DNA of 64,000 nucleotides. Origin: a bacterium (GTDB lineage Bacteria > Patescibacteriota > Minisyncoccia > Phycocordibacterales > UBA2100). The notes beneath the pieces are model-generated. The model had not been told where the DNA came from and made no database searches. It was given only the letters and a program-made list of their open reading frames with translations. The DNA lies in contig JAUSGQ010000006.1 of assembly GCA_030674455.1 (NCBI GenBank), positions 15,654 to 79,653 of the forward strand, in the 5' to 3' direction. The position numbers were made by a program, and so were the translations under genes. This document shows positions 4,217-5,800 of this stretch, in pieces (position 1 is the first letter of the stretch; each line of letters begins with the position of its first letter).

Positions 4217-5800
4217 ATGCCCGCTAAGAAAATCGTCGTCAGATTCGAAGATGTGTCGTTTGAATACGGCCAGACGAAGCCCATATTGAATGAGGTGAGT
4301 TTTTCTGTGCGCGAAGGATCGAAGATTACTCTCATGGGTCAAAATGGTGCCGGAAAGAGCACAATATTTGGGCTTATTATGGGAACGCTGAAGCCGGAGT
4401 CCGGCGACATTCATCTTGCTCACGGATTAACTATCGCGACTGCGAAGCAGGTAATGCCGCGCGATGCGCACGACCTCACCATCAAGGAATTTTTTGAAAA
4501 GTGTTTCGACAAACCCTCCTTCGCCAAGGCTTCGGCAGGGCGAGGAAAGATATACGACATTGACCCAAAGATAGATGCGGCACTGGAAGCGGTTAATCTC
4601 CATGCGCCGCACCAAAAAATAATCAAGACGTTTTCTGGCGGTCAGCAGGCGCGGCTGCTTTTGGCCTCGGCACTAATTCAGAATCCGGATATTCTGCTTC
4701 TCGACGAGCCGACCAACAATCTCGACAAAGCGGGCATCGCGCACCTCACGAAATTTCTGCAGGAGTATGAGAAAACGGTCATCGTCATTTCGCACGACGC
4801 GGAATTCTTGAACGCGTTCACTCACGGCGTCTTGTACCTCGATGTCTACACGCAGAAAATCGAACAGTACGTAGGCGATTACTTCGACGTCATCGCTGAT
4901 ATAGAAGTTCGTAAAGAAAAAGAAAATAGAAAGAACGCACAGCTGGAAAAAGATATTCAGGCCAACAAAGACAAGATGAACTTTTTCGCGCAAAAGGGAG
5001 GAAAGATGCGATTGGTCGCAAAGAAAATGAGGACGAAAGTTGAAGAAATGGAAGAAGAAAAAGTGGATGTGCGCAAAGAAGACAAAACCATCCGCACGTT
5101 CCACATTCCGTCTCAAAAAGATATTGTCGGTGAGATTCTTGGCATCACTTCGTTCACGCGGATGAAGAATCATAAACAGAGTACGCAAAAAGCGGACATT
5201 CATTTGAAGCGCAGAGACCATCTATTATTGAGCGGGCCGAATGGTATCGGAAAAAGCACGCTTCTTGAAGCGATTGCCAGAGGCGATTTTTTCGTTGGTA
5301 AACCAACGAGCAAAAATCGTGTCGGAAATAAGCCGTCTACAGGTGTCTATCATCACCCGATAGACCATATTTCCGACGGGGGAGTTAGACCTGAAATGAA
5401 AATTGCCGAGGGAGTTAGAGTAGGTTACTACCGCCAAGATTTTTCCACGCTCAACTTTGAGGATTCCGTTTTTGATTCTTTATATACCGTTGCGCGCAGA
5501 CATTCCGAACAGCATGTGCGTTCCGTTGCCGCAGGATTTTTAATTACCGCCGACATGATACAGACGAAAATCGGCGACCTTTCGGAAGGGCAGAAGGGAT
5601 TGGTGGCGTTCGCGCGTCTTGTGCTCCAAGAACCGGGGCTGTTGATTCTGGATGAGCCGACAAATCACATAAACTTCCGCCACATCCCCATAATCGCCGA
5701 GGCGCTGAACAGTTACGAAGGTGCGATGGTCTTGGTATCCCACGTTCCCGAATTTGTAGACAAAATCAGAATTGATCAAGTACTGGATTTGGAGAAGTGA
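4217..5800 (+). CDS. ABC-F family ATPase with two ABC domains (EttA/Uup-like translation factor)
   Basis: Two Walker A motifs (GQNGAGKST; GPNGIGKST), signature LSGGQQARLLLA, and an inter-domain linker. It carries in-frame repeat insertions at 4514-4545 and 5333-5366. Confidence 0.9.
   Translation: MPAKKIVVRFEDVSFEYGQTKPILNEVSFSVREGSKITLMGQNGAGKSTIFGLIMGTLKPESGDIHLAHGLTIATAKQVMPRDAHDLTIKEFFEKCFDKPSFAKASAGRGKIYDIDPKIDAALEAVNLHAPHQKIIKTFSGGQQARLLLASALIQNPDILLLDEPTNNLDKAGIAHLTKFLQEYEKTVIVISHDAEFLNAFTHGVLYLDVYTQKIEQYVGDYFDVIADIEVRKEKENRKNAQLEKDIQANKDKMNFFAQKGGKMRLVAKKMRTKVEEMEEEKVDVRKEDKTIRTFHIPSQKDIVGEILGITSFTRMKNHKQSTQKADIHLKRRDHLLLSGPNGIGKSTLLEAIARGDFFVGKPTSKNRVGNKPSTGVYHHPIDHISDGGVRPEMKIAEGVRVGYYRQDFSTLNFEDSVFDSLYTVARRHSEQHVRSVAAGFLITADMIQTKIGDLSEGQKGLVAFARLVLQEPGLLILDEPTNHINFRHIPIIAEALNSYEGAMVLVSHVPEFVDKIRIDQVLDLEK

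Follow-up and report, generated by a model that had tools for sequence, protein, structure and literature searches.

We analyzed a 64,000-nucleotide (nt) stretch of contig JAUSGQ010000006.1 (positions 15,654 to 79,653; referred to here as the window) from a patescibacterium. A short repeat that a preliminary description of this DNA had named Element C was found to be a real, nonrandom, and well-delimited family of miniature hairpin insertions in bacteria of the candidate phyla radiation (CPR), whose nearest described counterparts are the CGTC- and GTAG-tagged repetitive extragenic palindromes (REPs) and the Rickettsia palindromic elements (RPEs). Element C is very likely a mobile mini-insertion element whose copies have been filtered by selection. 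The best explanation overall, and probably the right one, is that its copies are nonautonomous, REP- or RPE-like miniature insertion elements of CPR bacteria (Patescibacteria) that would move as single-stranded DNA.

A conserved tail followed by a hairpin of variable sequence

The 13-nt core, CCGTCTACAGGTG, was present at 12 sites in the window, 8 of them exact and 4 with 1 or 2 mismatches. Dinucleotide-preserving shuffles gave an expectation of 0.64 matches with up to 2 mismatches and a maximum of 3, and none of 100 shuffles reached 12, so the core is indeed present and nonrandom, as had been proposed. At 11 of the 12 cores, a perfect stem of 5 to 6 bp with a loop of 6 to 9 nt started 1 or 2 bases past the core. 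At the twelfth, 62244, which heads a longer composite form, an extra module displaces the hairpin 27 nt downstream. Such a hairpin was missing from all 28 chance core matches that were inspected in viral contigs as a control; viral contigs were also considered as a reservoir of the element and rejected, since they held chance matches only. A search of the window with a covariance model built from 56 copies recovered those 11 sites as short copies (E < 0.01), with no additional match. The tally for the window is 11 short copies at nine loci plus 2 long copies.

The preliminary description had weighed the possibility that the copies within genes reflect the ordinary codon usage of a PSTG peptide. 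Nothing but the fact that frame 0, which gives PSTG, is the commonest reading speaks for this, and it was ruled out as the cause by copies that are read in all three frames and by others that lie in spacers. The shuffles argue against chance, and the occurrence of copies in independent assemblies from different samples argues against an assembly artifact. The probability that chance, codon usage, or an artifact explains Element C is negligible.

The boundaries of the unit were examined in an alignment of 56 copies from the window and other genomes, which were picked by the core alone (at most 1 mismatch) with the hairpin ignored. The unit consists of a 12-nt unpaired 5' tail, CCGTCTACAGGT, and a hairpin with a 7-bp stem and a 6- to 7-nt loop. 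On folding, the last G of the 13-nt core pairs with the C after the 3' arm and forms a constant closing G-C pair. The six variable stem positions were paired in 88% of cells across the 56 copies, and each of the six pairs had changes in both of its bases (C-G/U-A, G-C/U-A/C-G, and U-A/C-G are examples). The covariation score was 0.503, compared to 0.198 ± 0.019 for shuffled alignments and at most 0.14 for slid registers. These results demonstrate that the hairpin is conserved as a structure and not as a sequence, in agreement with the earlier view of a conserved core joined to a variable palindrome. Template switching within quasi-palindromes can keep perfect stems without selection; were this so here, the covariation would say less about function but would still point to a real hairpin. 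Units measured 33 nt when the loop had 7 nt and 32 nt when it had 6 nt, those of the CCGCC subtype measured 30 nt, and the loops were poor in G and differed even among copies sharing one stem. Two possible extensions of the unit were tried and rejected: an outer GG/CC closing helix, which pairs in 40% of sequences, and flanking inverted repeats, which occur in approximately 15 to 20% of copies and are instead a preferred context.

Discrete insertions at homologous sites

Filled and empty versions of the same site were compared in four cases, namely, the ABC-F gene, the gene for a peptidoglycan-binding protein, the sortase gene, and the loop of a palindrome termed D4 (loci and proteins from other genomes are designated by L and P numbers). 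Each comparison revealed a discrete block of 30 or 33 nt, and in all four the insert ran from the first C of the tail to the foot of the hairpin. No target-site duplication was seen at the four mapped junctions. The insertions in homologues thus uphold the proposal of a small, distinct element family that is tolerated in frame in coding sequence. Automatic pairing of homologous flanks between loci was also tried and was not used, because its threshold lay at the noise level and several pairs were paralogous copies within one genome.

Most ABC-F homologues are 483 to 486 amino acids (aa) long, and a few contain a palindromic block of approximately 25 aa. Among them, only the window protein and P0002 (L118) have 11 more aa inside this block, KPSTGVYHHPI or KPSTGVYPKPI. 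The loop of the 9-bp palindrome GTCGGAAAT..ATTTCCGAC is 33 bases longer at the filled sites, and the empty site in L117 reads GTCGGAAAT joined directly to GACCACATTTCCGAC. The junctions in the window and L118 are identical, AAG codon included. The host block itself (5283-5330 and 5366-5395 in the window; also in L117 and L118) encodes approximately 25 aa, DFFVGNPTSKNRVGN..DHISD.., with two hairpins, and is found in five polyphyletic lineages, with third codon positions approximately 95% conserved versus 53% for the gene. This outer block was considered as an interspersed repeat and rejected because it was found only in ABC-F orthologues.

In the peptidoglycan-binding protein gene, which lies next to the ABC-F gene, the window has the empty site (…AGC GGT/TCC AGT…) and L117 has the filled one, with an insert of exactly 30 nt (CCG TCT ACA GGT GCC GCC ACA ACC GGC GGC). 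Most sortase homologues are without a copy and read VY-GGGKEY; the window gene and P0133 (L231) carry a 30-nt unit at the same codon, after GGC GGG or GGC AGG. Sortase homologues P0122-P0125 (L200 10001-10732) have a different, 42-nt hairpin insert, PSPRQSGLQPRDSG, at exactly the codon used by Element C, which suggests that this codon is an insertion hot spot common to different families.

The fourth comparison lies outside genes. Three copies of the D4 palindrome, ATTCCAACATT CTCAAG AATGTTGGAAT, are intact and without Element C (7140, 7461, and 26984), and the fourth (about 9686-9759) has a 33-nt unit in its loop. L094, a Saccharibacteria-labeled contig, has a copy at the same position of the D4 loop in another genomic context. 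The members of the D4 family, ATTCCAACATTCTCAAGAATGTTGGAAT, lie in spacers of the window at 7140-7175, 7461-7496, 9686-9759, and 26984-27019.

Distribution of Element C

The window contains genes for ABC-F, sortase, Obg, BipA, ThrRS, DnaE, RNase III, RNase HII, SMC, SecA, GatB, and others, and the nearest named relatives of its proteins are from Candidatus Kaiserbacteria and other Patescibacteria. When one genome per species was scanned, at least 116 loci with a core match were obtained. Hairpin-bearing matches numbered at least about 45, in roughly 30 CPR genomes besides the window, so the copies are not limited to the window; such a limitation, with the coding copies explained by PSTG codon usage, was what the preliminary description had named as fatal to its proposal. 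All of the hairpin-bearing matches listed carry Patescibacteria, Paceibacterota, Kaiser-, Taylor-, Nomura-, Adler-, or Saccharibacteria labels or come from JAUSHX01, a metagenome-assembled genome that is syntenic with the window. Among the matches listed, several genomes had 3 to 5 loci each, and those from other phyla had no canonical hairpin (a 5- to 6-bp stem right after the core), a few having short, offset stems. Conversely, 1.01 Mb of contigs chosen solely by a ThrRS 43 to 63% identical to that of the window contained zero copies. These contigs were rejected as syntenic relatives of a tandem array present in the window, the best being only 63% identical and without copies, and they serve as an unbiased negative sample. 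Taken together, these results demonstrate that the family is widespread but patchy.

An over-represented, short, exact word that is tolerated in coding sequence is also what would be expected of a DNA uptake signal such as the Neisseria DNA uptake sequence (DUS) or the Haemophilus uptake signal sequence (USS), and GCCGTCTGAA, which we take to be a DUS, is partially similar to Element C (shared CCGTCT). DUS and USS occur approximately once per kb in either orientation, arise by substitution, and form lineage-specific dialects; Element C fits neither that density nor that origin nor that lineage pattern. Its density in the window is approximately 1 per 6 kb, the adjacent hairpin is always present, the copies arose by insertion of 30 to 33 nt and not by point mutation, and the same word occurs in distant lineages yet is absent from most. 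An uptake signal is therefore a very improbable explanation.

Reading frame, nucleotide conservation, and lineage of filled alleles

The lengths of Element C copies were divisible by 3 in 14 of 15 cases in open reading frames (ORFs) of at least 250 aa, compared to 14 of 27 in spacers. Sense copies in ORFs were read mostly in the PSTG frame and also in the RLQV and VYRC frames. All window copies inside ORFs were sense to the gene, and strict sense orientation, which would imply an RNA function, was considered; it was true of the window and failed in the spacers of other genomes, where copies face either way relative to their neighbors, and four copies were antisense within ORFs. The frame filter together with the mixed orientation is consistent with random insertion and the subsequent loss of harmful copies, those that break frames included, and the mixed orientation is a misfit with a directional RNA signal.

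Nucleotide conservation of the inserts was then compared to that of the genes that carry them. Between the window and L118, ABC-F gene DNA was 77% identical, with 53% identity at third positions of identical codons, and the corresponding values for the inserted block were 93% and 27 of 28 third positions. For the window and L117, in which only the outer block can be compared, the values were 94% and 18 of 19. The ABC-F flanks beside the insert were as diverged as the remaining gene. The sortase copies of the window and L231 were identical at 27 of 30 nt, compared to 69% for the gene and 52% for its third positions. Copies of Element C are therefore 90 to 96% conserved where the synonymous sites of the host gene are saturated.

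Neighbor-joining trees of ABC-F and sortase were built with the insert columns excluded. In the ABC-F tree, the window protein grouped with the empty P0005 and P0003, and the filled P0002 grouped with the empty P0023; in the sortase tree, the two Element C-bearing sortases fell into different clades. As placed by these trees, the filled alleles are polyphyletic. The combination of conservation and polyphyly could possibly result from re-entry at the same sites, from exchange between lineages, or from direct selection at the nucleotide level; the patchy distribution is better fitted by re-entry and exchange than by nucleotide-level selection.

We considered two ways in which such a pattern might arise without a mobile element. 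If the tail and hairpin were the binding or processing site of a conserved CPR factor, maintained as an RNA or DNA signal by purifying selection and spread only secondarily, then the high conservation next to saturated synonymous sites, the covarying stems, the presence of the same core in several CPR lineages, and the sense orientation of the window copies would all follow. Such a signal is unlikely, given its absence from the bulk of the CPR sequence examined (0 copies in 1 Mb), its presence/absence polymorphism at orthologous sites with polyphyletic filled alleles, the copies in both orientations in spacers and the four that are antisense in ORFs, the lack of a fixed position relative to starts, stops, or operons, and the lack of a match to any Rfam family. 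Stem complementarity can also be kept by template switching in quasi-palindromes, a textbook point, and does not set a host signal apart.

Natural competence is generally attributed to CPR bacteria, and the element could have had a rare origin and then spread by homologous recombination after DNA uptake (allele conversion) rather than by transposition. Identical junctions in the window and L118 and the filling of the same sites in nonsister lineages would be expected from such exchange. This explanation is less probable still: a mechanism that creates new sites is needed for unrelated genes and spacers of a 64-kb stretch to have acquired 11 short copies at nine loci, and flanks as diverged as the rest of the gene mean that the conversion tract would have to coincide with the element.

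Composite forms, palindrome loops, and the tandem array

A long form of 61 to 64 nt has a 27-nt module between CCGTCTACAGG and the TG-hairpin part of the unit. This module, CGAATCAGCAGAYTTCGTGGCTYGGCC, folds into two small hairpins. The long form is present in the window at 6770-6833 and 62244-62304 and also in L018, L103, L104, and L116. The 62244 copy is directly followed by a partial repeat of the 27-nt module (62305-62330) and is preceded by a short copy; this short-then-long arrangement (62211-62304) was also found in L018, and L116 has the long form first. The preliminary description correctly saw two adjacent elements here, which it placed at 62221-62265 as a pair of copies of one kind; they are in fact a short copy at 62211-62243 and the 61-nt long form at 62244-62304. 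In the N terminus of sortase homologue P0127 the long form is translated as RLQANQQSSWLGLP, and the RluA-type proteins of the window and L103 are about 20 aa longer because of it, the L117 site being empty. The 27-nt module occurs alone, without Element C, in L029, L115, and L117. Composites of D4 with Element C and of Element C with the 27-nt module recur at unrelated loci. That the long form exists and recurs indicates that cargo can be accommodated in Element C between the 5' end and the hairpin.

Apical loops of other palindromes hosted Element C at about ten times the frequency expected by chance. Exact flanking inverted repeats of at least 10 bp surrounded 7 of 56 copies, compared to a control frequency of 0.03%, and for 11 of 53 copies the flank-to-flank duplex energy was below the 5% point of the control. 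Hairpin loops are a favored context and not a requirement.

The minus-strand array at 31558-31654 had been described as 3 x 31 bp. It does consist of three units head to tail, with lengths of 31, 31, and 35 nt, and the hairpin-foot C of each is shared with the next tail. The hairpins (TCTATC/ATGAAC, CCTATC/ACAAAC, and TCTATT/CACTACACC) differ, and the units are therefore not fresh duplicates. The array lies between the stop codon of a 495-aa gene and a bidirectional terminator. At the syntenic locus L202 (JAUSHX01), the array is absent and a different hairpin family occupies the spacer; one Element C copy lies there within the C-terminal tail of the upstream gene.

Comparison with described elements

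The CGTC/GTAG-tagged REPs (Di Nocera et al. 2013; PMC3733652) include the Neisseria dRS3 elements and the REPs moved by RAYT (REP-associated tyrosine transposase) proteins. CGTC REPs have a stem of 8 to 9 bp that starts with A/T pairs, a loop of 4 to 5 nt, and a 3' CCA tail; GTAG REPs are associated with a RAYT (Y1 transposase) gene, and CGTC REPs have no known transposase (PMC3733652). Element C resembles REPs in being a small unit with an unpaired 5' tag and a stem-loop (30 to 35 nt, versus 20 to 40 nt for REPs), in keeping the tag while stems and loops vary among subtypes, and in having occasional inverted pairs and clusters and some copies in genes. Its tail contains CGTC and also CTAC, the complement of GTAG, and, as for CGTC REPs, a dedicated transposase is not known. 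Conversely, the REP tag is 4 nt long and next to the stem, whereas that of Element C is 12 to 13 nt long, with CGTC at tail positions 2 to 5, 8 nt from the stem. The Element C stem is 7 bp with a G-C foot, in contrast to the 8- to 9-bp stems of CGTC REPs with A/T at the first two positions, and its loop is 6 to 7 nt, not 4 to 5 nt. In place of a CCA tail, the C that comes after the 3' arm is part of the closing pair, and additional C residues are flanking sequence. Single units predominate in Element C and head-to-head dimers in REPs, and its hosts are CPR bacteria, which the REP survey (PMC3733652) did not cover. As judged from these sequence features, Element C departs from the definition of REPs in how long its tag is and where CGTC lies in it, in the length and composition of the stem, in loop length, and in dimer organization.

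RPEs, as cited in PMC3733652, are palindromic selfish DNA located in frame in conserved genes of the reduced-genome, host-dependent Rickettsia, and the resulting proteins are apparently functional. To the extent that this account describes them, RPEs and Element C are alike as palindromic inserts that lie in frame in conserved genes and are absent from orthologues (ABC-F, peptidoglycan-binding protein, sortase, and RluA for Element C). Element C appears to be unrelated to them in sequence, belongs to another lineage, and is much smaller than the longer RPE-1 insertions of that account; unlike RPEs, it is built on a defined tail-plus-hairpin plan and can be nested within the loop of another palindrome.

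Miniature inverted-repeat transposable elements have terminal inverted repeats and a target-site duplication; the ends of Element C are unlike each other (tail versus hairpin), and no duplication was seen at the four junctions. Transposons that HUH enzymes mobilize as single strands include the IS200/IS605 type, palindrome-associated transposable elements (PATEs), IS91/ISCR, and Helitrons. As far as is generally known of these, they share with Element C the lack of terminal inverted repeats and target duplication, the tolerance of cargo between the ends, and a short conserved 5' sequence together with a terminal or subterminal hairpin that is read by shape. At 30 to 33 nt, Element C is far smaller than any HUH-mobilized element known to us.

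Searches for described RNA families and for earlier reports gave little. Rfam at gathering threshold had no match in the whole window. A permissive Rfam search of 62150-62400 gave nothing significant, with one weak match (E = 1.9) on the long-form hairpin, and one of 31520-31800 gave weak matches only, the better ones on the nearby terminator. No account of CPR elements of this type was found in open-access text, in which the core string gave unrelated primers.

A possible mechanism of movement

A conserved 5' end and a 3' hairpin read by shape, without terminal inverted repeats or target duplication, make movement as single-stranded DNA the simplest interpretation. HUH-type enzymes move REP/RAYT, IS200/IS605, and IS91/Helitron elements as single strands. 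Element C would be moved by a trans-acting strand-transfer enzyme of the HUH/tyrosine-transposase type, as for REPs and IS200/IS605, that recognizes the sequence of the tail and the shape of the hairpin. By analogy with these systems, an HUH-type transfer step is conceivable, and we put it forward tentatively. Landing sites would preferably be exposed single strands, such as hairpin loops, and selection would afterwards purge copies that break reading frames. The survivors in genes would be the 30- or 33-nt copies that encode mostly flexible PSTG(A/V) segments in surface loops, linkers, and termini of proteins.

Several observations weigh against a mobile element of this kind. The four junctions (AAG^CAT, ATT^CTC, AGC^TCC, and GGG^GGA) have no common target sequence, and three of the four are ambiguous by 1 to 3 nt. 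IS200/IS605 elements insert beside a fixed tetra- or pentanucleotide, and none is shared by the junctions of Element C, whose 5' flanks (AAG, ATT, AGC, and GGG) differ in this from those of IS200/IS605 elements and PATEs. A single hairpin in place of one at both ends is likewise unusual for the IS200/IS605 family. No Y1_Tnp (RAYT-type) or other transposase, integrase, recombinase, or HUH domain was found in the 48 window ORFs scanned (51 in the ORF map), and no search was made genome-wide. All window copies differ from one another, and a very recent burst is thus not indicated. Selection for a host function is another possible source of the strong conservation at synonymous sites, and the trees from which polyphyly was read carry no support values.

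A further possibility, which we consider speculative, is that Element C belongs to an undescribed CPR hairpin-end transposition system whose units of 30 to 60 nt, with a 5' end of 11 to 12 nt and a shape-read 3' hairpin, are cut and pasted as single strands. Such a system would target exposed hairpin loops and a few permissive protein loops. Its units would nest, acquire further hairpin modules as cargo, and enter a given site anew in different lineages, and their identity would remain above 90% even as divergence of the host genes reached saturation. The enzyme might be new or a known small nuclease in a new use, and other hairpin families of the same genome might use the same machinery. A stand-alone gene for a 93-aa GIY-YIG nuclease (9402-9683) precedes the 9703 copy, with 19 nt between them. 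L117 and L200 also have small GIY-YIG genes of this sort, upstream of obg, yet lack that copy, and the adjacency at 9703 may therefore be coincidence.

The genomes of CPR bacteria are tiny and streamlined and are usually described as poor in mobile DNA. In the window, several families of hairpin insertions are borne by conserved proteins (ABC-F, sortase, pseudouridine synthase, and others). If Element C is mobile, part of the length variation and "extra loops" of CPR proteins would be explained, and segments of 10 to 20 aa such as PSTGA... would be selfish DNA and not functional motifs, which would concern annotators and structure predictors. A 12-nt tail plus any 7-bp hairpin would also be a very small substrate with which to find the mover of REP-like elements, those of the CGTC type included. 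Near-identical copies at the same site in nonsister lineages bear on DNA exchange among CPR populations.

Copies in the window and neighboring features

The copies in the window are given in Table 1. The peptides quoted in the preliminary description were correct; some of its coordinates needed correction, and the diverged copies at 37555 and 45467 were not included. The core variant TCGTCTACAGATG was found again in L055 and L057.

Table 1. Positions and contexts of Element C copies in the window
Copy	Position	Strand	Core site(s)	Location and features
Short, 33 nt	5333..5365	+	5333-5345	ABC-F gene, in frame, peptide PSTGVYHHPID
Long form	6770..6833	+		Antisense within RluA-type pseudouridine synthase gene (6301-7176, minus strand)
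Short, 33 nt, core variant CCGTCTGCAGGTG	9703..9735	+	9703-9715 (1 mismatch)	Intergenic, D4 palindrome loop, between ACATT and CTCAAG
30 nt	26722..26751	+	26722-26734	Sortase, in frame, PSTGAATTSG; hairpin CCGCC..AGCGG slightly degenerate
Three-copy array	31558..31654	-	31580-31592, 31611-31623, 31642-31654	Units 31624-31654, 31593-31623, 31558-31592
Variant core, TCGTCTACAGATG + CCGATG..CATCGG	37555..37587	+	37555-37567	Spacer upstream of dnaE
33 nt, stem CCGGC, 9-nt loop	45366..45398	+	45366-45378	Open frame upstream of DEAD-box helicase domains
Diverged, 30 nt, CCGTCGACAGGTC + TCGCC..GGCGA	45467..45496	+	45467-45479 (variant)	Helicase leader or N-terminal extension; E = 0.005
Short, 33 nt	62211..62243	+	62211-62223	HTH_17 membrane protein gene, another frame: RLQVPTIDRSA
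Long form, 61 nt	62244..62304	+	62244-62256	CCGTCTACAGG, 27-nt hairpin module CGAATCAGCAGACTTCGTGGCTCGGCC, TG, hairpin
Short, 33 nt	63493..63525	+	63493-63505	In frame, PSTGADAKLIG; second HTH-type ORF running past window end

A copy had been placed in the helicase N terminus. The copy is present, but the 140-aa "N-terminal extension" (45318-45600) is composed wholly of hairpin elements, its unbroken frame running across four different ones. The true start codon of the DEAD-box helicase ORF is doubtful, and the stretch that hosts the 45366 and 45467 copies may be a 5' leader and not coding sequence.

Other repeats were observed in the window. A GC-rich hairpin family, CCCGCC TTCGCCGAGGCTYC GGCGGG, occurs at 4514-4546, 16323-16360, 31388-31422, 43910-43938, 44916-44950, and 45526-45554; in ABC-F, it forms a clean 33-nt in-frame insertion (PSFAKASAGRG) that is present only in the window and P0006. 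A further hairpin family, GAATTCYCGAGGAGACACCT.. / ..AGGAGTCACCTCGG, lies at 24613-25155, 31288-31394, and 48378-48401 and in L202 at 5800-6070. Its hairpins are located both within the part that encodes the C-terminal tail of the Tyr/Pro-rich, 495-aa surface protein and beyond it, and the copy number differs in the syntenic relative. AT-rich spacer repeats on TTTGCAAATT / AATTTGCAA were found at 44357-44471, 56052-56184, and 59329-59478. A 68-nt repeat (85% identical) at 41941-42008 and 52209-52276 lies just upstream of the SMC and inositol-monophosphatase genes. Near its first copy is a gene for a PaaX_M (Cas2-like) protein (41187-41795), and L202 has a PaaX_M gene at the place of the array.

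Three genes of the window had unusual lengths or domains. The DEAD-like domain of SecA (56652-59228) spans 430 residues, compared to a profile of 290 positions, which implies an insertion of approximately 140 aa. In GatB (59207-61528; 773 aa), the catalytic and tail domains are separated by an inserted PD-(D/E)XK_3 nuclease domain (PF13366, aa 329-437). Finally, positions 17745-24887 are occupied by a single ORF of 2380 aa.

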